From positions 1 through 27,444 of the forward strand of contig CAZTBQ010000002.1 of assembly GCA_964612445.1 (NCBI GenBank): a DNA stretch of 27,444 nt, in the 5' to 3' direction. The position numbers and the translations under genes were made by a program. The stretch is from an uncultured Candidatus Saccharibacteria bacterium. GTDB lineage: Bacteria > Patescibacteriota > Minisyncoccia > UBA6257 > 2-01-FULL-56-20. Shown piece after piece: positions 1,465 through 27,143 of the stretch; positions within the stretch are counted from its first letter, which is position 1, and each line of letters begins with the position of its first letter. A model generated the notes under the pieces. The model was not told the origin of the DNA and did no database searches. It saw only the letters and a program-made list of their open reading frames with translations.

Positions 1465-1890
1465 ATGCCGACAATACATCAATTAATTAAAAAAGGGAGA
1501 AAGTCGCTGAAGACCAAAACAAAGTCTCCGGCTTTTTCGTACTATTTTAACCACATTCAAAATAAGCGAGTTGATTCTCCGTCTCCGTTCAAGAGAGGAG
1601 TTTGCTTGAAAGTTTTTACCACCACTCCAAAGAAACCAAACTCAGCCTTGCGAAAAGTTTGCCGTGTTCGTTTGACTAATGGAATGGAAACCACTGCTTA
1701 TATTCCAGGAGAAGGACACAACTTACAGGAACACTCTATCGTTGTTCTCCGCGGAGGAAGAGTTAAAGATTTGCCGGGTGTTAGATATCACGTTGTTCGT
1801 GGTGTTTTGGATACTTCCGGAGTTGATAACCGAAAACAGCAGAGATCAAAGTATGGTTCTAAGAAAAATGCCGGAGCAGCCAAAAAATAG
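1465..1890 (+). CDS. rpsL: 30S ribosomal protein S12
   Basis: [39 protein letters not shown] motifs; long-loop form. Confidence 0.99.
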
Positions 1891-1893
1891 TAG

Positions 1894-2058
1894 GTGAGCG
1901 TAGCGAACCTACCGAGCACATAAATTAACCAACAAAAAATGAAATTTACTGATATAAAAACAAATGAATTGGTCGGAAGCAGGGCATATAGTGATATGTG
2001 CTCGGTGCTCAATTCTGTAGATAAATTTTTATCGTCTACAGACTCAAAAATTTAAACA
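1894..2058 (+). repeat. Structured intergenic element (family T), copy 1
   Basis: TGAGCGTAGCGAACCTACCGAGCACATAA, 72-nt unique spacer, ATGTGCTCGGTGCT, then a TGTAG..CTACA hairpin; matches 2538-2703. Confidence 0.85.
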
Positions 2059-2068
2059 TAATTGGCAA

Positions 2069-2536
2069 ATGCGAAAAAAGAGAGTTTATAAAAAACATTA
2101 CAAAGCAGATACTAAACACGGAAGAATTGATCTTGGCCGATTGATTAACTACGTCATGTGCGACGGAAAGAAATCTATTGCTGAGAAAGTTGTTTATGAT
2201 GCATTAGATATTATCGCTAAAGAAACCAAAGAAGACGCATTGGTTGTTTTTGATAGAGCGATGGAAAACGCATCTCCAATTTTGGAAGTTGCTTCTAAGC
2301 GTGTTGGTGGAGCTAACTATCAGGTTCCGCGAGAAGTAAGCCCTGCTCGAAAATTTGTTTTAGCTTTAAGGTGGATGGTGGAAGCCTCTAGAAACGTAAA
2401 AGGCAAGCCAATGGCTGCCAGATTGGCCGCGGAAATAATTGCTGCTTCCAAGAATGAAGGAACTGCCATTAAGAAGAAGCAAGATACTCACAGAATGGCT
2501 GAGGCTAACAGAGCTTTCGCTCATTTCGCCAGATAG
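2069..2536 (+). CDS. rpsG: 30S ribosomal protein S7
   Basis: GKKSIAEKVVY, RVGGANYQVP, HRMAEANRAFAH motifs. Confidence 0.99.
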   Translation: MRKKRVYKKHYKADTKHGRIDLGRLINYVMCDGKKSIAEKVVYDALDIIAKETKEDALVVFDRAMENASPILEVASKRVGGANYQVPREVSPARKFVLALRWMVEASRNVKGKPMAARLAAEIIAASKNEGTAIKKKQDTHRMAEANRAFAHFAR

Positions 2537-2537
2537 T

Positions 2538-2703
2538 TGAGCGTAGCGAAACTACCGAGCACATAAGCTGTGAACTATAAGCAAGTCGCATGGAATATAA
2601 TTTTAAAAATCATTAACCAAGTCGTTAACCCTTGAGCAAATGTGCTCGGTGCTTGTTTTGTAGCTAAATTTTTTCGCTATAAATCAGGCTCAAAATTTAG
2701 ACA
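2538..2703 (+). repeat. Structured intergenic element (family T), copy 2
   Basis: 5' 29 nt match copy 1 at 28/29; 3' arm ATGTGCTCGGTGCT is identical; 73-nt unrelated spacer. Confidence 0.85.
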
Positions 2704-2712
2704 AAACTAAGC

Positions 2713-4818
2713 ATGCCGCGAATATATCCATTAGAAAAAATTAGGAACATCGGAATTATTGCTCATATTGATGCCGGAAAGACTACTACTTCTGAGCGTG
2801 TTCTTTTCTATACCGGAGTTTCTCACAAAATTGGCGAAGTTCACGAAGGAGCAGCAGTAATGGATTGGATGGAGCAGGAGAGAGAGCGTGGTATCACAAT
2901 TACTTCCGCGGCAACCACGGCTTTTTGGGTTCCAACTTATCGAAAGGGAGATAAAAATTACGAATATCGCTTTAACTTAATTGATACTCCTGGACATATA
3001 GACTTTACTGTTGAAGTTAAAAGATCGCTACGTGTTTTGGACGGCGCAGTAATGGTTTTTGACGGTGTTTCTGGTGTTGAGCCACAATCGGAAACCAATT
3101 GGAGATATGCTGATGACTATCAAGTTCCAAGATTATGTTTTATAAATAAATTAGATAGGATGGGGGCAAGTTTTGTTAATGGATTGGCTTCTATCCACGA
3201 TAGGTTGACTCCAAATGCTGTTGCTATTCAGCTTCCTATTGGGTTGGAGGCGGAACACAAAGGAGTTGTAGATCTTATCAGGATGACCGCTTTTGAATTT
3301 CAGGGTGCTCATGGCGAGAACATTATCGAGATTCCGATTCCTAATGACATGAATGAAGATGTGGCTAAATATCGCCATACTTTAGTTGAAAAAATTGCGG
3401 ATACAGATGATTCTTTGATGTCCAAATATTTAGACGGAGTCGAAATAACTGTAGATGAATTTAAAAAAGCCCTTAGAAAAGCGACCATCGCTAATACTTT
3501 GGTTCCGGTTTTGTGTGGTACCGCTTTAAAGAATAAAGGCGTGCAATTTATGTTGGACGCAGTTGTGGATTATTTACCATCTCCGCTAGACATCCCACCA
3601 ATTAAAGCTATTGACCAGAACACTGGAGTCGAAGTTCCAAGACATTCATCTGACACCGAGCCATTCACTGCATTGGCATTTAAGATCGCAACCGATCCTT
3701 ACGTTGGAACTTTAACTTACTTTAGAAATTATTCCGGAGTTTTGAAGAAAGGTTCTTATGTTTTAAATACTACCAAAGGACAGCAAGAGCGTATTGGACG
3801 TATTGTTCGTATGCACGCTAATGATCGAGAAGAAGTTGATGAAGTCTTTGCCGGAGAGATCGCCGCTATTGTAGGACTTAAAGGGACTACTACTGGCGAC
3901 ACTTTGACCGATCCGACAGCTCCGGTTGTTTTGGAATCTATTACATTCCCTGAGCCGGTTATCGGAATTAGAATTGAGCCGAAGACTAAGGCTGACCAGG
4001 AAAAAATGGGCAATGCTTTACATCGTTTGGCCGAAGAAGATCCAACTTTCCGCGTGGAGGGTGATAACGAAACTGGTGAGACTATTATTTCCGGTATGGG
4101 TGAACTTCACTTGGAAATTATTGTGGATCGTATGAAGCGCGAATTTAATGTTGAAGCCAATGTCGGCAGACCGCAGGTTGCTTATAAGGAAACCATTTTG
4201 GGCGAAGCTGAAGCCGAAGGAAAATATATTCGTCAGTCTGGAGGTCGTGGTCAGTATGGTCATTGTTGGTTGTCCGTGAAGCCTTTGGAACGCGGAAAAG
4301 GATTTGAATTTATCAATGCTATTAAGGGAGGCGCAATTCCACAAGAATTTATTTCTCCGATCGAAAAAGGTGTAAAAGAAGCGGTTAGTCGTGGTGTAGT
4401 TGCCGGATACCCGATTATGGACATAGAAGTCAAACTTTTTGATGGATCTTATCATGAAGTCGATTCTTCGGAAGCCGCGTTTAAGATGGCCGCCTCTATG
4501 GCTTTGCAGGAGGCAGCTAAGAACGCCAAGCCGGTTATTTTGGAACCGATTATGAAAGTTCAGATAATTATTCCGATGGATTACTTGGGTGAGGTTACCG
4601 GTAACGTTAACTCTAAGAGAGGAAGAATTGATGCGATCAACGATCGTGGAAACACTAAGATTATTGATTGTAAGATTCCGCTTTCGGAAATGTTCGGATA
4701 TGTTACCGAGTTGCGTTCAATGACTCAAGGACGAGGAAGCTCCACTATGGAATTTGATCATTACGAGCCAACTCCGAAGAACATTGAGGCAGAGATCGTT
4801 AGTGGAAAACGTAAATAG
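2713..4818 (+). CDS. fusA: Elongation factor G
   Basis: [52 protein letters not shown] motifs; 701 aa. Confidence 0.99.
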
Positions 4819-5188: not shown

Positions 5189-6388
5189 ATGGCAGAAAAA
5201 GAAAAATTTACTCGCGGTAAGCCACACGTTAACGTTGGTACTATTGGCCACGTTGACCAGGGTAAAACAACCCTCACCGCGGCCATTACTCATGTTTTAC
5301 ACATGAAAGGTTTGGCGAAAAAATCAGAGGGAGTCGATGATATCGATAACGCTCCGGAAGAAAAAGCTCGTGGTATTACCATTGCGATTCACCACTCCGA
5401 GTACGAGTCCGAAAAGAGACACTATGCTCACATTGATGCACCAGGTCACGCGGACTACATTAAAAACATGATCACCGGTGCCGCCCAGATGGACGGTGCA
5501 GTATTGGTTGTCGCAGCTACTGATGGTCCTATGCCTCAGACTCGAGAACACATCCTTTTGGCTTACCAGGTCGGTGTGCCGAAAATCGTTGTTTTCTTGA
5601 ACAAGTGCGATATGGTTGATGATCCAGAACTCATCGATTTGGTAGAGTCTGAAGTTCGAGAGCTTTTGAAGAAATATAACTATGATGGAGATGCTACTCC
5701 AGTTATCCGTGGTTCAGCTTTGAAGGCTTTGAATGCGACCGCTGTTGACAGTGCCGATGCTAAACCGATTGTTGATTTGGTTCAGGCTTTGGATGATTTT
5801 ATTCCGGAACCTGTTCGAGAACTCGATAAACCAGCTCTTATGCCTATCGAAGATATTTTCTCTATCGAAGGACGTGGAACTGTTGTTACCGGACGTATTG
5901 AACGTGGAGTCGTTAAAGTTAACGATGAAATGGAAATCATTGGTTTGCGACCAACTGTAAAGACGGTTGTAACCGGTATTGAAATGTTCAACAAACTTTT
6001 GGACGAAGGACAGGCCGGCGATAACGTCGGAATCTTGCTCCGAGGTTTGAAGAAGGAAGATGTCGAACGCGGTCAGGTTATTGCCAAGCCGGGTTCCGTC
6101 ACTCCTCACACCGAATTTGATTGTGAAGTTTACATTCTTTCAAAAGAAGAAGGTGGACGACACACCCCATTCTTTAAAGGATATAAGCCACAGTTTTACA
6201 TCCGAACCACTGACGTTACCGGTGAAGTAACTTTGCCGGAAGGTTCAGAAATGGTTATGCCTGGTGATACAGTTAAACTTAAAGTTAAACTTATTTCTCC
6301 AGTTGCATTGGAAGAAAAGCAGAGGTTTGCTATCCGCGAAGGTGGTAAAACCGTCGGTGCTGGTGTTGTAACTAAGATCAACGCCTAA
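5189..6388 (+). CDS. tuf: Elongation factor Tu
   Basis: [55 protein letters not shown] motifs. Confidence 0.99.
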
Positions 6389-6806: not shown

Positions 6807-6977
6807 TTTTTCCAGCAGAAGACGTTTTTATTTTGATTTCGTCGGGTCGCTGTCTAGCTCCTCCTGCGGGAGCTAGCGCTGCCGCTCGTTCACTTTGCTC
6901 TCGCAAAGCGAGAGACCAAGCCAAAGTGAACTGCGCGACACCCGCCGAAATTAAAATAAAAGAGTCGGTTGGAAAAA
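6807..6977. repeat. Multi-branch palindromic element (family M), copy A
   Basis: Outer arms TTTTATTTTGATTTCGTCGGG / CCCGCCGAAATTAAAATAAAA; inner CTAGCTCC-TCCTGCG-GGAGCTAG; GTTCACTTTG[CTCTCGC-AAA-GCGAGAG]ACCAAGC-CAAAGTGAAC. Confidence 0.7.
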
Positions 6978-7233
6978 CTTGGTTGAAAATAAGTGATTAA
7001 GAACAAATTTCGATGTCCTGCCACAAACAGAAATATCGGCGGTTTTAAAACTTATTTTACGAGTGGTGACAGGGCGAAGACAGAGACCAAGCCAAAATGA
7101 ACTGTTTACGGTGAGCATAGTCGAACCGCGCGATACCCCTTATAGGTAAAATATATTTCAAATAGCAAGATAGCAGTTAAGAAAACTTATTTGACGAGTG
7201 GTGAGTGTGGGAGAATTGATTTATTATTCAATC

Positions 7234-8678: not shown

Positions 8679-8835
8679 TACATAAGGATAACCGATTAGG
8701 CAATCGCCCGGGAATCCTTGGCGGTTTTTTTATAACAAAATAGGCGGGTTTCGGTGGCGAATAGTCAAAACGCTCAAGCACATATAATGTGCTCGGTCAT
8801 AATTTTCTAACTCGCTTTCGCTCGCAACAAAATTT

Positions 8836-9381
8836 ATGAGTTTCATATTAGCAAAAAAAGTAAAAATGACTCAGATCTGGAAGGACGGAAAAATCGTTCC
8901 AGTAACTGTAGTTAAAGCGGAACCTAACAAGGTTTCTTTAGTGCGTACTAACGATCGAGATGGATATAGCGCGGTTCAAGTTCAGCTCGGAAGGACCAAA
9001 AAGGAATTTTCTATTAACGAAGGAGAGACTTTTGAGGTTGGACAAGAGATTTCAGTTGCCACCTTCACTGAAGGTGAAGATGTGACTATCTCCGGGCTTT
9101 CGAAGGGACGCGGTTTTCAGGGTGGAGTTAAAAGACATGGTTTCCACGGAGGACCTAAAACTCACGGTCAGAAAAACAGATATCGAGCACCAGGATCCAT
9201 CGGTAGTACTGCTCCTCAAAGAGTTGTTCCGGGAAGGAGAATGGCCGGACACTTTGGAATGGAAAGAAATACTCGAAAAGATGTAAAAATCGTTCAGATT
9301 GATGCCGAAAATAACTATTTGATGTTAAAAGGTGCAGTTCCGGGGGGTCCAGGAACTTTGGTAGAAATTTTCAAAGCGTAA
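8836..9381 (+). CDS. rplC: 50S ribosomal protein L3 (short form, 181 aa)
   Basis: K..MTQI, DGYSAVQ, SKGRGFQGGVKRHGF, R.PGSIG, MAGHFG, KGAVPG. Confidence 0.98.
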   Translation: MSFILAKKVKMTQIWKDGKIVPVTVVKAEPNKVSLVRTNDRDGYSAVQVQLGRTKKEFSINEGETFEVGQEISVATFTEGEDVTISGLSKGRGFQGGVKRHGFHGGPKTHGQKNRYRAPGSIGSTAPQRVVPGRRMAGHFGMERNTRKDVKIVQIDAENNYLMLKGAVPGGPGTLVEIFKA

Positions 9382-18694: not shown

Positions 18695-18820
18695 CACTTC
18701 GGAGTGACCGGAGTCGCAAAACTCCAGCGGTTTTGCGCTCCTGTATCTCGACACAAAAACTTTTCCTTCGGAAAAGACCAATCTTTTTGTGTCTCCGATA
18801 CCCACTCCAAAGTGTTAATT
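18689..18820. repeat. Multi-branch palindromic element (family M), copy B
   Basis: AATTAACACTTCGGAGTG / CACTCCAAAGTGTTAATT outer arms; GGAGTCGCAAAAC-TCCAGCG-GTTTTGCGCTCC; GACACAAAAA[CTTTTCC-TTCG-GAAAAG]ACCAATC-TTTTTGTGTC. Confidence 0.7.
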
Positions 18821-18957
18821 TTCGCGTGGTGAAAAAAACAAAGGCGAGGCAGGCACCCCCAAGAAGAGGTTAATTTCGCTGTGAGAAATAATATAATAGC
18901 CGAGCTTTTTGTGCCTGCGATAGCCAGTTCAAAGCGTTAATTTTCGCTGAGTGAAGA

Positions 18958-18988
18958 AATAAAAAACACCAGAAATGGTGTTTTATTT
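18958..18988. terminator. Bidirectional-type terminator between secY and the convergent gene
   Basis: AAAACACCA-GAAA-TGGTGTTTT with flanking A and T tracts. Confidence 0.7.
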
Positions 18989-22594: not shown

Positions 22595-24043
22595 ATGATA
22601 GAAGCATTACGCGACGAGCGCATTAAAAAATTACAAAAATTGCGCGAGATGGGGGTGGAGGCCTACCCTCAAATGTCCAGGCGAACCCTTTCGCTTTTTG
22701 AGGCGCGTAAAGAGTTTTCGAAATTATTTAAAAGCAAGAAAAAACTTTGGCTCGCAGGTAGAATTTTGAGTATCCGTGACCAAGGCAATATAATTTTTTT
22801 GGATTTAGAAGATGAGAGCGGAAAGCTTCAGGCGGTTCTATTAAAAAAGAGCATTAAGAATTTTTCTGTATTTAAGGGAAACCTAGATCGAGGCGACTTC
22901 ATTAATGTCTTTGGAGTTTTATTTAAGACTAAAAGCGGAGAAATAAGCCTCGAAGTCCGTGAGGCAAATATTCTTACCAAATCCCTGCTTCCAATTCCAA
23001 GCGAATGGTACGGAGTGGAAGATCCGGATTTGCGATTGCGCGCACGCTATTTGGAGCTGCTTACCGATCCAAACACAAAAGAGATGTTCCGAAAAAAATC
23101 TGCTTTTTGGCAGGCTTTTAGAGAATTTCTTTTGAAGGAAAACTTTTTCGAGGTTGAAACTCCGGTATTGGAATCAATTCCTGGCGGCGCAGAGGCGGAG
23201 CCATTTAAGACTCATCTCAAAGCTTTGGATATAGATTTATATTTAAGGATTTCCTTGGAATTAAGCTTGAAGAAGTTAATTGTTGGTGGGTATGAAAAAG
23301 TTTTTGAAATTGGAAGAATCTTCAGAAACGAAGGAATCGATAAAGAACATTTGCAGGATTATACCCAGCTGGAATTTTATTGGGCTTATCATGAATATAA
23401 TGATTTGATGAAGCTCATCGAAAAGATGTATAAGTTTGTTATAAAAAAGACAATCGGGACATATAAGACAACTTATGATGGAAAGAAAATAGATTGGGGT
23501 AAAAAGTGGAAGACGGTTGATTACGTCGCCTCGTTTAAAAAAGCTGTTGGCTTAGATCCGTTGGAAGCTAGCGAGGAAGAACTATTTTCGTATGCTAAGA
23601 ATAAAGGGTTCGGTCCGGAGCGACATATGGGTCGTGGTAGGTTGATAGATTTAATCTTTAAGAAAACTGTTCGACCAACCTTGATTCAGCCATGTTTTTT
23701 GATTGATCCTCCAGTTGATATTGAACCACTCGCAAAGAGGCACAGAAAAGATTCTCGTCGTGTGGAGCGTTTTCAAATTCTTGCCGGAGGAACTGAGCTT
23801 GGTAAAGGTTTTACCGAACTAAATGATCCACTTGATCAGCGTGCTAGATTTGAGGAGCAGATGGGTCTTCGAGAGGCTGGAGATAATGAAGCTCAAATGA
23901 TGGATGAGGGTTTCGTGGAGGCGCTTGAATACGGGATGCCACCGACCGCCGGATTTGGAATTTCCGAGAGGTTATTTGCGGTGATTATGGATAAACCGGT
24001 AAGAGAAGCTGTGTTTTTTCCGCTCATGAGACCTAAGAAATAA
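22595..24043 (+). CDS. lysS: Lysine--tRNA ligase (class II)
   Basis: OB-fold AGRI, R.RYL.L, VETP.L, GGAEAEPF.TH, FRNEGID, GFTELNDP.DQR.RF, EYGMPPT.G. Confidence 0.98.
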   Translation: MIEALRDERIKKLQKLREMGVEAYPQMSRRTLSLFEARKEFSKLFKSKKKLWLAGRILSIRDQGNIIFLDLEDESGKLQAVLLKKSIKNFSVFKGNLDRGDFINVFGVLFKTKSGEISLEVREANILTKSLLPIPSEWYGVEDPDLRLRARYLELLTDPNTKEMFRKKSAFWQAFREFLLKENFFEVETPVLESIPGGAEAEPFKTHLKALDIDLYLRISLELSLKKLIVGGYEKVFEIGRIFRNEGIDKEHLQDYTQLEFYWAYHEYNDLMKLIEKMYKFVIKKTIGTYKTTYDGKKIDWGKKWKTVDYVASFKKAVGLDPLEASEEELFSYAKNKGFGPERHMGRGRLIDLIFKKTVRPTLIQPCFLIDPPVDIEPLAKRHRKDSRRVERFQILAGGTELGKGFTELNDPLDQRARFEEQMGLREAGDNEAQMMDEGFVEALEYGMPPTAGFGISERLFAVIMDKPVREAVFFPLMRPKK

Positions 24044-24044
24044 T

Positions 24045-24072
24045 CGTGTAACTTGTAGCTTGTAACGTGTAG
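24045..24072. repeat. Heptamer tandem repeat C(G/T)TGTA(A/G) x4
   Basis: CGTGTAA CTTGTAG CTTGTAA CGTGTAG; related copies at 27118-27137. Confidence 0.7.
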
Positions 24073-24156: not shown

Positions 24157-27105
24157 ATGAAGAAAATCTTTATTTTTGGTGGTTTGGCTATTTTGTTGGG
24201 TGTTGCGCTTTTTACCAGCCAAACAATTTTAGTTTATGGTCAGGCCTTTAATCAGGACGGAGATGATTGCTTTATGTCTCCGGCAGATGAAAGGTGTGAT
24301 ACGGTAATATATTCTCCTCGTGGCGGCGGCGGAGGGATGTCTTCTGGAGGATCGACCACTACTACGACAGAGCCGGGAGTTCTTGGTTTTTTAAATTTTT
24401 CTCCTGGATCAGTGGTTGACGGAGGGTCGTTTTCAATTAGACTTTCTGGCGCCGAAAGCATTCCGACCAATACCGTTACTCGCCTTTGGATTGATCCAGA
24501 GAATACGGGAAGTTTTAAAAATTTTGGAACATGGCTTACGGTTGGGGAGTTGCGGTCCGGTATTTCTCGCAAATTAACTTGTTCTTCGTATTCTAGCTAT
24601 GACCCTTCTGGGGCTCAGAATATTTCTGGAAAAAAGTTAAATCAAAGAATTTTTATTTCTTATGAAGGACTTGGATATGGCTCAGAGATCTCGCTTCACA
24701 CGAAAGATTGTTCATCTTCGGGATCCGGCACAACTGGACCTTCCTCTCCGTCTGGTGGTTCTTCGGGGTCAGCGGCATGTTTGGTTTCTCCTGGATCAAT
24801 TAGTATTTCGCAAGGTGGAACTGCAAATTTATCAGTTTCAACTTCAAGAACTTCAACTAGCGGAGATTTAGTTTATGTTAACGCAATTGGTTTTCCGACA
24901 GGGTCATATTCTTCTTTGGGGAATGGACAGGTTATTGATGCCGGTAAGACACGAAAAGATTTTCAAGTTTTTTCAACAAATAATGCCAATCGAGGACAAG
25001 CTCAATTTACAGTTTATTGCTCAACTGGATGTCCGGTTTCTGGATGTCCATCGGGAGGAGCTCCCGAAGTTTTGGGTTCTGCTCAGGTTTCTATTAATGT
25101 GACTGGTAGTAATCCAGAGCCAGTTGTTGGAGGAGGAAGTAGCGGGGGATCTTCTGGATCCGGAAGCGATGCTTGTCGTGTGGGTAGTTTGATTCTGCCT
25201 CCGAATAGTAGCGATAGGACCGATATAGGTTTTGATGAGACAGAAAATAATATTAGTTTCTCGGCTACTCCGATTGGCTCCGGAATAAGTAGTGTATCTG
25301 CATATCCGAACATAAAAATTGCAAGGGTGCAAAACGGATCCGGAAGAGAGGTGCCGATTGTGCATGTAAAAACTTCTAATGATTTTTCCGGACAGTCTTC
25401 TTATAATTTGGCGTGTAATTATGAAAGTAATCGTCTTGCTGCGGTTGGGATGATATCAACACCGGCGGTTTCGAATCCGGCCGGAAAAGTTAAACTTTCC
25501 CAGATGGAGGATTTAAAAGAAATTTTATTCCCAAGTTCTGTGTGTAATTTTAACGTAAAGGGTTGCAGGTCTGGTTTTTTCTCTAGATCTCCATTATTTG
25601 TTATAGCCAATGCTACGCCTCCTGCTTTGGTTGGTGCTGACATGATTGCCTTGAGTCCGGCTCCGGCAAAAGGTAATACTGCTCATCCGCGGTTATTTAA
25701 TTTGTCTAATCCTTTGCGTCCAACTGATTCAGGGCTAACCGGTCAGATTCGAGCGGGCGGTGATTATGATACTGCTGGTGATTTTGGTGCATATTTGGCG
25801 ATGGAGGGTGCTGCTTACAGTAAAGACAAGACTATATGGGCTGGACTAAGTAGTCAGGGGAATATTTATGTTTGGAAAGACGGAAAAAGATATGAAGATT
25901 GGGGTGGCTCTGGATCTAGGCAGATATATGGAATAATTAAATATGGATTTAGCTACATATTATTAACCCATTCGGGGTCTTATGATATTACGAATGGTAT
26001 GACTCCTGTGGATTCAGGAATAGATGCTCTTTCTGGAAATATGTGGCGCAGGGATAGATTAAATGCTGCACCCGCCGGATTTCCGGATATGCCTAACGGA
26101 GAAAAGATTATTTTGGGGGATGATAAACATATTTTAGCGATCGTCACAGGCACGGCTTATGGACAGCCGGCGCAAAATAGAAGATTGGCAGTGTATTCGG
26201 CAGACAGTTCTAATGTTGTTGCTGAGCAGACGCTTCCATATGCGGACGGGTCGGAAAAGTTCGGAACAATTCCAGTCCAGGGCGGTGAATATCTGTATGT
26301 GCTTAGAGCGCCTAAGTATACTTCCGCTACGGACCGCGCTCTTTACGGACCACAATTCGCAACGGTATATAAATTTGACTACGCGACTAAAAAAATAACC
26401 GAGATTGCAAAAGATGTCGCTTTAGCCCCTGGATATGTATCTGCAAATGTGGCTTTTGGGGCAAATACCCCAAATCCTGGAATAGTGGTTTCCAGTTTTA
26501 CTTATCCAGCCGGAAGCTTTGATGTCCAAGAAGCAAAAATTCAGGTTTATTTAATTTCGGATTTGGCCCAAGGAAAGGGGATTGATGTGTTATCTAATTC
26601 TCCAACATGGAAAGATGATACTCATCGAATGATGCAGGCTGCATCTCTTACTGTTGGTGGAGCGACATATGTTTATTCCGACGACGCTAGAGTTTATAAA
26701 TTGGAAATGGGAACGGCCACTTCCGATGGATCTACGAATCCGCCAACAACTACTCCGCCAGCTGGAGGTGGCACAACCTCAACCACTCCAACTTATGATT
26801 GTGCTTTTGATTTAACATTTACTCCGGCTAGCTTAACAGTGAAGCAGGGGACATATTATGCAAGCTATACCGTAAAGGCAAATAGCACGAGCGTTAATCC
26901 ATTTTGCACAATTAGCATAATTCCACCGAGTCAGAATAATATTCGCTCCGATTATATGAGTAGCTTAGTAGTTTCTCCGAATGGGCAAGCAAGTATGTTG
27001 TTGAACGTCTCTAAGGCTGCTAAAGGGTCATATGTACTTCCAGTTAAAGCTGCAGCTAAGGGTGTTCCAGTTAAAACATATAATGTTAATCTGACGATAC
27101 AATAA
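24157..27105 (+). CDS. Large secreted/surface protein (982 aa) with Ser/Gly/Thr/Pro linkers and Ig-like modules
   Basis: Signal peptide MKKIFIFGGLAILLGVALF; low-complexity linkers; modules starting CLVSPGSISISQGGTANLSV and FDLTFTPASLTVKQGTYYASYTV; Cys-rich N-terminal half. Confidence 0.85.
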   Translation: MKKIFIFGGLAILLGVALFTSQTILVYGQAFNQDGDDCFMSPADERCDTVIYSPRGGGGGMSSGGSTTTTTEPGVLGFLNFSPGSVVDGGSFSIRLSGAESIPTNTVTRLWIDPENTGSFKNFGTWLTVGELRSGISRKLTCSSYSSYDPSGAQNISGKKLNQRIFISYEGLGYGSEISLHTKDCSSSGSGTTGPSSPSGGSSGSAACLVSPGSISISQGGTANLSVSTSRTSTSGDLVYVNAIGFPTGSYSSLGNGQVIDAGKTRKDFQVFSTNNANRGQAQFTVYCSTGCPVSGCPSGGAPEVLGSAQVSINVTGSNPEPVVGGGSSGGSSGSGSDACRVGSLILPPNSSDRTDIGFDETENNISFSATPIGSGISSVSAYPNIKIARVQNGSGREVPIVHVKTSNDFSGQSSYNLACNYESNRLAAVGMISTPAVSNPAGKVKLSQMEDLKEILFPSSVCNFNVKGCRSGFFSRSPLFVIANATPPALVGADMIALSPAPAKGNTAHPRLFNLSNPLRPTDSGLTGQIRAGGDYDTAGDFGAYLAMEGAAYSKDKTIWAGLSSQGNIYVWKDGKRYEDWGGSGSRQIYGIIKYGFSYILLTHSGSYDITNGMTPVDSGIDALSGNMWRRDRLNAAPAGFPDMPNGEKIILGDDKHILAIVTGTAYGQPAQNRRLAVYSADSSNVVAEQTLPYADGSEKFGTIPVQGGEYLYVLRAPKYTSATDRALYGPQFATVYKFDYATKKITEIAKDVALAPGYVSANVAFGANTPNPGIVVSSFTYPAGSFDVQEAKIQVYLISDLAQGKGIDVLSNSPTWKDDTHRMMQAASLTVGGATYVYSDDARVYKLEMGTATSDGSTNPPTTTPPAGGGTTSTTPTYDCAFDLTFTPASLTVKQGTYYASYTVKANSTSVNPFCTISIIPPSQNNIRSDYMSSLVVSPNGQASMLLNVSKAAKGSYVLPVKAAAKGVPVKTYNVNLTIQ

Positions 27106-27143
27106 GCACGCAACATATAGCTTGTAACGCGTAACTTCAAAAA

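Follow-up and report, generated by a model that had tools for sequence, protein, structure and literature searches.

The 27,444-nt stretch of contig CAZTBQ010000002.1 analyzed here (the window) belongs to an uncultured bacterium of the Candidate Phyla Radiation (CPR; GenBank assembly GCA_964612445.1) and carries the genes rpsL, rpsG, and fusA in a row. The gaps between them, 178 nt from rpsL to rpsG and 176 nt from rpsG to fusA, are each filled by a structured element, and these twin elements are the subject of this analysis. The assembly (G000) has 567 kb in 60 contigs, a G+C content of 42%, and a completeness of ~90%. Its closest named relatives are metagenome-assembled genomes of Candidatus Paceibacterota/Patescibacteria, and the organism is contained in wastewater and sludge sequencing runs. 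The main point of comparison is a sister species (G001), and all results are computational.

Both gaps open 1 to 4 nt past the stop codon with the 29-mer TGAGCGTAGCGAA(C/A)CTACCGAGCACATAA, which is identical at 28 of 29 positions. They share ATGTGCTCGGTGCT on the 3' side of the interior and end, shortly 5' of the next ATG, with the motif CTCAAAA..TTTA.ACA. The twins are co-oriented, and their arms are nearly identical. Each copy is made up of three hairpins that directly adjoin one another, namely, a mini-hairpin located at the stop codon of the preceding gene, hairpin 1 (HP1), and hairpin 2 (HP2), the latter spanning ~26 bp and ending on the next ATG. HP1 is formed by the 10-nt arms CCGAGCACAT and ATGTGCTCGG around a loop of 74 nt in copy 1 (rpsL-rpsG) and 75 nt in copy 2 (rpsG-fusA). 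An initial annotation of this DNA had described twin elements with fixed arms and unrelated spacers. Gap lengths, 29-mer, and tail motifs agree with the first part of that description; the second is borne out by a semi-global alignment of the two loops, which detects no similarity (z = -1.0 relative to shuffles).

The fold of HP2 is carried by covariation. For the tails of eight copies from four genomes, RNAalifold returns a single 26-pair hairpin, termed module A, whose ends are the TGC just past the 3' arm and the GCA that immediately precedes the ATG; compensatory changes occur in 14 of its 26 pairs. A covariance model of the 3' arm plus HP2 (R1) yielded 53 distinct hits, in whose alignment double compensatory changes occur at all 26 pairs. 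Paired cells amount to 93.6%, versus 21 to 47% when the partners are slid by 1 to 3 columns, and none of 500 shuffles reaches the observed values; the alignment is fitted to the model and hence leans towards structure, but the margin is large.

In full-size relatives, HP1 is preceded by a second hairpin (module B), located directly after the stop codon and ending in ..AACCTTA against the 5' arm. Since R1 matches module B in inverted orientation, modules A and B are inverted homologues. In the window, module B has shrunk to a mini-hairpin of 21 to 23 nt (module B'). Its stem shows the compensatory variants TAGGT/ACCTA, TAGTT/AACTA, and TAATT/AATTA among copies 1 and 2, the sister species, and a neighboring genus, and the apex of copy 1, GAGCG.AGCGAA, matches that of the full-size module in relatives. 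The three helices abut without any spacer; in copy 2, the first stem takes in the stop codon, and the last stem takes in the A of the start codon. In both copies the host ATG is found at the base of a stable helix (fold z-scores of -3.2 and -3.5).

The initial annotation had predicted a long stem with an 11-nt bulge. The bulge assigned to that stem is the separate 5' mini-hairpin, and the TGTAG..CTACA hairpin is particular to copy 1 and not a conserved fold. A switch-like pairing of the bulge with the 3' hairpin had been proposed as well. This complementarity reflects the inverted homology of the 5' and 3' modules, and no loop-loop covariation between the two was seen by eye in the few copies compared. 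Kissing between the apex of the 5' mini-hairpin and that of HP2 was likewise discarded: the apices share a consensus and no covariation was seen by eye, their complementarity following from the inverted homology of modules A and B.

Within the window, CCGAGCACAT or its complement occurs five times (0.84 expected), a count that none of 100 shuffles reaches, and the palindrome is present 14 times in the whole assembly, compared to once for a control pattern. A scan tolerating at most three mismatches in total across both arms detects 29 arm pairings in the genome, ~21 of them outside open reading frames (ORFs). Most are 23-nt hairpins with loops of 2 to 5 nt at gene junctions; loops of 74 to 76 nt are limited to three, namely, the twins and one on contig C3. 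Elsewhere in the order, further genera and families have the palindrome as well, its loops measuring 2 to ~90 nt.

Table 1. Coordinates of the twin elements, their host genes, and a related site in the window.
Feature	Positions	Strand	Remarks
rpsL	1465-1890	+	Stop codon TAG at 1888-1890
Copy 1, module B' mini-hairpin	1890-1912	+	RNA fold; directly after rpsL stop TAG; G-C to T-A compensatory change relative to sister species
Copy 1, HP1 5' arm CCGAGCACAT	1912-1921	+
Copy 1, HP1 loop (spacer, 74 nt)	1922-1995	+	At the position of the GIY-YIG gene of full-length elements
Copy 1, short reading frame, 38 codons + TAA	1939-2055	+	Starts in A-rich loop; crosses 3' arm and most of HP2
Copy 1, HP1 3' arm ATGTGCTCGG	1996-2005	+
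Copy 1, module A (HP2)	2006-2067	+	Ends 1 nt before rpsG start; R1 score 86.8 bits; 100% identical in sister species
rpsG	2069-2536	+	Start codon 2069-2071; stop codon TAG 2534-2536
Copy 2, module B' mini-hairpin	2534-2554	+	Stem includes rpsG stop TAG; minimum free energy and centroid folds agree
Copy 2, HP1 5' arm CCGAGCACAT	2555-2564	+
Copy 2, HP1 loop (spacer, 75 nt)	2565-2639	+	Lacks a long ATG frame
Copy 2, HP1 3' arm ATGTGCTCGG	2640-2649	+
Copy 2, GTG frame, 22 codons	2642-2710	+	TAA ends 2 nt before fusA ATG; also in sister species
Copy 2, module A (HP2)	2650-2713	+	Helix closes on A of fusA ATG; R1 score 76.7 bits; 100% identical in sister species
fusA	2713-4818	+	Start codon 2713-2715
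Collapsed third relative before rplC	8774-8838	+	HP1-like hairpin with 3-nt loop, then 11-bp hairpin

A patchy family at stop-to-start junctions

The twins belong to a dispersed family. R1 matches are found in 36 of 101 genomes of the same taxonomic family, with 1 to 17 copies each, and are spread patchily by genus over 23 of 48 genera; in these and all other family counts, copies within one genome and genomes within one genus are non-independent samples. When 81 module-A hits were examined together with their flanks, 66 were found to end on an ORF's ATG or at most 3 nt from it. Many ribosomal protein genes are among those downstream, together with fusA, nusA, nusB, dnaJ, secY, mreB, clpP, ligA, pilC-like genes, and membrane protein genes. 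At the other end, full-size module B directly follows the upstream stop codon, which is TAA in 20 of 21 cases; overall stop codon usage in the window genome is ~65% TAA, 25% TAG, and 9% TGA.

Among 30 order-level relatives with an intact rpsL-rpsG-fusA arrangement, the twins are present only in the window genome and the sister species. Most of the other relatives have gaps of 0 to 35 nt between rpsL and rpsG and of 2 to 120 nt between rpsG and fusA, and the few longer gaps contain other sequence without the palindrome. Two further sets of 80 str loci show the element sporadically before rpsL, rpsG, or fusA in distant lineages. As a side observation, the rpsG-fusA gaps of two relatives (L038 and L057) measure 431 and 463 nt, and some long gaps appear to hold a small ORF. 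Other long gaps (among L051, L057, and L169) contain TACGAAT-like heptamer repeats, so that other fillers use the same gaps.

This distribution bears on one of two explanations offered by the initial annotation, an S7-responsive or str-specific element. It would be an autoregulatory operator for S7, or for another ribosomal protein, duplicated before rpsG and fusA. Copy 1 occupies the position that the S7 operator has in Escherichia coli, and both copies are extremely conserved between the window genome and the sister species. However, the same module stands upstream of dozens of unrelated genes, it is absent from the orthologous gaps of 28 of the 30 relatives, full-length members carry a nuclease gene, and Rfam gives no match anywhere in the window at the gathering score, a check that had been suggested along with the operator. 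An operator is consequently very improbable. The initial annotation had set criteria in advance: scattered copies and their absence from orthologous gaps would count against an operator, and confinement of copies to translation operons would count against a mobile element. By these criteria, the distribution rejects the former and retains the latter.

Insertion polymorphism is apparent at the infC-rpmI junction, which displays four states in four species of one genus (g18; L333 to L336). The junction is empty in one species (G140: TAA, 4 nt, ATG), is occupied in another (G151) by a member of the present family with its nuclease gene, and holds two unrelated hairpin element families in the remaining two. 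This suggests that several element families compete for the same stop-to-start niche. In addition, an RNA-library contig (run X16) with ~98.8% identical flanks carries 78 other letters in place of the 183 bases from 2537 to 2719, which correspond to copy 2 and the first bases of fusA. No strain closer than 77% S7 identity was found among the metagenome contigs.

A collapsed third relative of the twins precedes rplC in the window, where the rplC ATG lies inside the 3' strand of the 11-bp hairpin. The HP1 ortholog at this site in the sister species has a 75-nt loop, to whose 3' end the window sequence aligns, which gives the impression that the 5' arm was lost and that a new pairing partner evolved locally.

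A GIY-YIG nuclease gene between the HP1 arms

An intact 75-amino-acid ORF on contig C1 of the window genome (positions 5329 to 5556) matches the GIY-YIG catalytic domain (PF01541, E = 4.6e-9). In the stretch from 5329 to 5620 (L302/L303), two HP1-like hairpins come after the ORF, beginning at most 6 nt downstream, and a pilC-like gene starts behind them. This copy has HP1-like arms downstream but lacks a match to the module A model. The C1 gene is the window genome's own candidate nuclease for the element family; in the sister species, no homologue of it was found at E <= 1e-5.

The link between nuclease and element is seen in other genomes. Six of the seven closest homologues (58 to 66% identical) lie exactly between HP1 arms and are flanked by modules A and B (two copies in each of G151 and G109 and one in each of G133 and G105), and the seventh (G095) has an internal stop codon and no adjacent model match. 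In G151, the order runs from the stop codon through module B, the 5' arm, 6 nt, the nuclease ORF with its TAA, 4 nt, the 3' arm, and module A to the ATG of rpmI. Interiors of 74 to 91 nt occupy the position of this gene in other members. No GIY-YIG ORF is present in the window copies, which are therefore derivatives of nuclease elements and not homing endonuclease cassettes themselves.

The spacers are probably decayed remnants of the nuclease gene. One loop begins with a near copy of the first five nuclease codons, one has a stretch matching the region that encodes YIGYT..L.RR, and the sister-species ortholog of the copy 1 loop shows weak similarity to the gene (z = 3.5). A decayed nuclease slot would account for fixed arms with unlike interiors. 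The second explanation of the initial annotation, an element with a replaceable interior resembling repetitive extragenic palindromes (REPs) or miniature inverted-repeat transposable elements (MITEs), is essentially right in this respect, the interior being the gene slot of full-length copies. The shared length of the two spacers is put down to descent from a putative common short form. The idea that spacers act as locus-specific "address" sequences is not supported: a weak resemblance (z = 3.9) links the copy 1 loop to that of an element at a different junction, the fusA junction, of another genus.

Loop lengths fall into a class of 6 to 16 nt (15 elements) and one of 70 to 91 nt (38 elements), in addition to the nuclease form with ~235 nt between the arms. 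Within the long class, loops cluster at 70 to 79 nt and, most strongly, at 84 to 86 nt, which may represent two clonal deletion derivatives. At the pilC junction, all three forms (occupied, decayed, and empty with a short loop) are found across different genera, a pattern that resembles the gain-decay-loss cycle of homing endonuclease genes. A REP-associated tyrosine transposase (RAYT) gene (Y1 transposase, PF01797) was found in one of five element-bearing genomes and not in the window genome.

Conservation and a short reading frame before the host start codon

The 3' arm and HP2 of both copies are identical between the window genome and the sister species at 146 of 146 positions. The loops are 92% (copy 1) and ~90% (copy 2) identical, the copy 2 loop of the sister species containing a 9-nt partial arm duplication and small indels. 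For comparison, coding genes of the two species share 82 to 85% identity, third codon positions 59 to 67% (~62%), and the region upstream of rpsL 77%. The rise in identity sets in at the element borders, and the flanking codons do not share in it. We interpret this as purifying selection on what is now the start region for translation of two essential genes.

Good promoters near the region are predicted only before rpsL and before tuf, and a strong terminator lies 3' of fusA, which places rpsG and fusA on one mRNA containing both elements. A 217-nt metatranscriptome contig corresponds exactly to positions 1780 to 1996, from the end of rpsL through the 5' arm and loop of copy 1. As to the start sites, a 4-mer Shine-Dalgarno core is located upstream of only 12% of the genes in the window genome, sequences before start codons are A rich and G poor, and a multidomain S1 protein is encoded.

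The helices could serve as processing signals at which RNase III or another nuclease cuts, separating the cistrons and leaving rpsG and fusA with very short leaders, the loop being dispensable cargo. Perfect helices of ~26 bp fit such a role, Correia elements are RNase III substrates, and the RNA contig ends exactly where the 3' arm begins (1996). The sister species and three other element-bearing genomes (G105, G095, and G119) have RNase III, but it was not found in the window genome (TIGR02191 and PF14622; 90% complete). One contig end is no evidence of cleavage, and processing leaves the frame-specific depletion of stop codons in the loops, described next, unexplained. We therefore consider this role improbable, although less so than an S7 operator.

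Of the 38 long loops, 35 contain an ATG frame that extends past the 3' arm and enters HP2 by more than 20 nt, versus 11.7 +/- 2.9 (maximum, 22) for loop shuffles. Collapsing similar loops leaves 29 such frames in 32 loops, where shuffles that preserve dinucleotides give 10.9 +/- 2.5. Over the final 45 nt of the loops, this frame (frame 0) has 4 stop codons and the other two have 21 and 27. The distance from the stop to the host ATG is 11 nt in 19 of the frames. Where a copy bears the nuclease, the stop codon of that gene lies 2 to 8 nt before an ATG in the 3' arm; from this ATG, a frame of 20 to 25 codons runs through HP2 and either terminates 11 nt short of the host ATG or overlaps it (ATGA).

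In copy 1, the frame stops 13 nt before the rpsG ATG and is open in the sister species too, despite four amino acid changes. The loop of copy 2 contains an 8-codon ATG frame and a 21-codon GTG frame, both of which stop inside the loop. A conserved leader peptide was considered and rejected: four of the five changes in copy 1 between the two species are nonsynonymous, and copy 2 has indels. With the amino acid sequence not conserved, it is the open frame that is kept and not a peptide. These data suggest translation by a relay in a genome that does not use Shine-Dalgarno sites.

Two other contents of the loops were considered. An internal promoter was rejected, with sigma-70-like matches in the loops at chance level (9 found, 8.5 expected). 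A tRNA scan found no tRNA; loop lengths of 71 to 77 and 83 to 91 nt are tRNA-like, which is treated as coincidence. Elsewhere, the window contains intergenic repeat pairs unrelated to this family: 18778 to 18842 with 18900 to 18964, 7024 to 7069 with 7159 to 7204, and 6903 to 6933 with 7074 to 7104. Another unrelated pair, 24039 to 24071 with 27101 to 27133, follows a long gene in each case.

A modular mobile element with a putative ribosome relay

Taken together, the most probable interpretation, to which we assign a probability of roughly 0.7, is that the filler of each gap is a single non-autonomous copy of a mobile element that occurs in Paceibacteria-type CPR bacteria, is built from hairpin modules, sits at stop-to-start junctions, and carries a relay. 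The full element comprises module B at the upstream stop codon, the HP1 arms with the 75-amino-acid GIY-YIG gene between them, and module A reaching the host ATG; in the window copies, module B is miniaturized and the 74- to 75-nt spacer takes the position of the nuclease gene. Transcribed within the rpsL-rpsG-fusA mRNA, the element would let ribosomes start, without a Shine-Dalgarno site, at an ATG of the HP1 loop, which is A rich and unstructured. By translating the short frame across the 3' arm and HP2, they would melt the hairpin that buries the host start, then stop 2 to 13 nt before the host ATG and re-initiate there. The data show the layout of the element, its family and insertion polymorphism, its link to the nuclease, the surplus of open frames, and the strong conservation; we infer the translation of the short frame, the re-initiation, and the way in which the nuclease moves the element.

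A further-reaching version is more tentative and, in our estimate, somewhat less likely to be right than wrong. It holds that the relay is portable and that host genes depend on it: ribosomes would load on the A-rich loop, the nuclease or its remnant frame would be translated, HP2 would be unzipped, and essential genes such as rpsG would be reached via the parasite's leader only. The HP1 loop would be the entry site of the nuclease, and elements embedded in mRNAs would pass through a cycle of empty, invaded, and decayed states. Dependence of essential genes on a parasite leader would explain the base-perfect conservation.

Several observations weigh against a mobile element with a relay. Copy 2 has no ATG frame crossing HP2 and offers only the GTG frame that starts in the 3' arm, so any relay would have to differ between the twins. 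Over its C-terminal half, the short frame is the translated conserved hairpin, which leaves the openness of the frame in the variable loop as the sole independent evidence. The similarity of the loops to the nuclease gene is weak, with a best z of 2.8 to 3.5. Mismatches in HP1 comprise 4 G-U and 10 A-C, giving no sense-strand G-U excess; the G-U and A-C counts for HP2 are biased by the model, and selection for pairing on the mRNA strand is not supported by the counts. The wobble strand of solo hairpins in the window genome does not follow gene direction either, and a hairpin acting at the DNA level is possible. No target-site duplication was seen at the filled infC-rpmI junction, in one empty/filled comparison in which the 4-nt spacer is replaced, and no mechanism is known by which the element would reach new junctions. 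The very high identity of the two species could stem from a recent, precise exchange of elements between the two lineages. Finally, the RNA evidence comes down to one assembled contig, and DNA may be present in the library behind it.

Some of these points favor purely selfish, tolerated insertions. Their hairpins would exist for DNA-level reasons, such as recognition by the nuclease or by repair on single-stranded DNA, the frame would be inherited from the nuclease and have no host role, and rpsG and fusA would be translated in another way. The nuclease gene in the autonomous form, the several unrelated element families at the same junction, the lack of a sense-strand G-U excess among HP1 mismatches, and the lack of a long ATG frame in copy 2 all agree with this. 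However, random decay should place stop codons in all frames, in contrast to the 4, 21, and 27 observed. Identity at 146 of 146 positions, with third codon positions at ~62%, argues for a function in cis. The host ATG is also buried in a 26-bp helix, in contrast to other starts in unstructured, A-rich leaders, so an opening device would be needed. Selfish insertion without a host role is accordingly judged unlikely, although it is the strongest competitor of the mobile element with a relay.

With respect to known systems, the element resembles co-transcribed hairpin MITEs such as Correia/NEMIS of Neisseria, ERIC/IRU of enterobacteria, and BOX/RUP of pneumococci, which are also short, gene-less, multicopy, strongly folding, intergenic, transcribed within operons, modular, and patchy. 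Dispersed patchy copies, an enzyme-encoding autonomous partner with the same ends, and presence/absence polymorphism were all found here. Unlike MITEs, the window-type element spans exactly from stop to start, is almost always co-oriented with the gene, shows no target-site duplication, has an autonomous partner that encodes a GIY-YIG nuclease instead of a DDE transposase, and contains a short frame with its end immediately ahead of the host ATG. REPs and their assemblies (bacterial interspersed mosaic elements, or BIMEs, and REP doublets forming hairpins, or REPINs) share with the solo HP1 hairpins of the window genome (~23 nt) the character of dispersed palindromes that combine with other motifs into mosaics. 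Their RAYT enzyme, however, was found here in only one of the five genomes mentioned above, the associated enzyme being the GIY-YIG nuclease.

Free-standing GIY-YIG homing genes (seg of phage T4) and insertions in CPR rRNA genes share with the element a small GIY-YIG gene placed between or within housekeeping genes. In CPR bacteria, GIY-YIG genes have been described in non-intron insertions of rRNA genes, seemingly outside classical homing (PMC11270868). In contrast to these, the gene here forms part of the loop of a conserved hairpin, with another hairpin module on either side. The many non-homologous junctions occupied are not explained by classical homing; the flanks show no co-conversion tract between the window genome and the sister species, and the window copies have lost the gene.

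For the relay, the closest likeness is leader-ORF coupling, as in tap-repA of plasmid R1 and repY-repZ of IncI plasmids, where a short frame ends near a helix-buried start that its translation would unmask. A short frame that ends near a masked start and is kept open is found in copy 1 and across the family, and in copy 2 only by way of the GTG frame. In contrast to the plasmid leaders, the device here is portable, located on a mobile element before many genes, with a frame known from sequence alone and without an ATG frame in copy 2. None of the known systems combines exact stop-to-start placement, co-orientation with the gene, a nuclease in a hairpin loop, and a relay frame, and no published description of the element was found in the literature searched.

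The elements would be mobile DNA adapted to the few bases between a stop and a start codon, the sole place where an insertion is survivable in a tiny, gene-dense genome. It seems that they bring along a means of handing ribosomes over to the host gene, in organisms lacking Shine-Dalgarno sites. This bears on translation initiation inside CPR operons, on the long structured spacers held by core ribosomal operons of these bacteria, and on the spread of GIY-YIG genes outside introns. It also matters for annotation, as gene callers and RNA-motif searches will misread such fillers as regulatory leaders or small genes.

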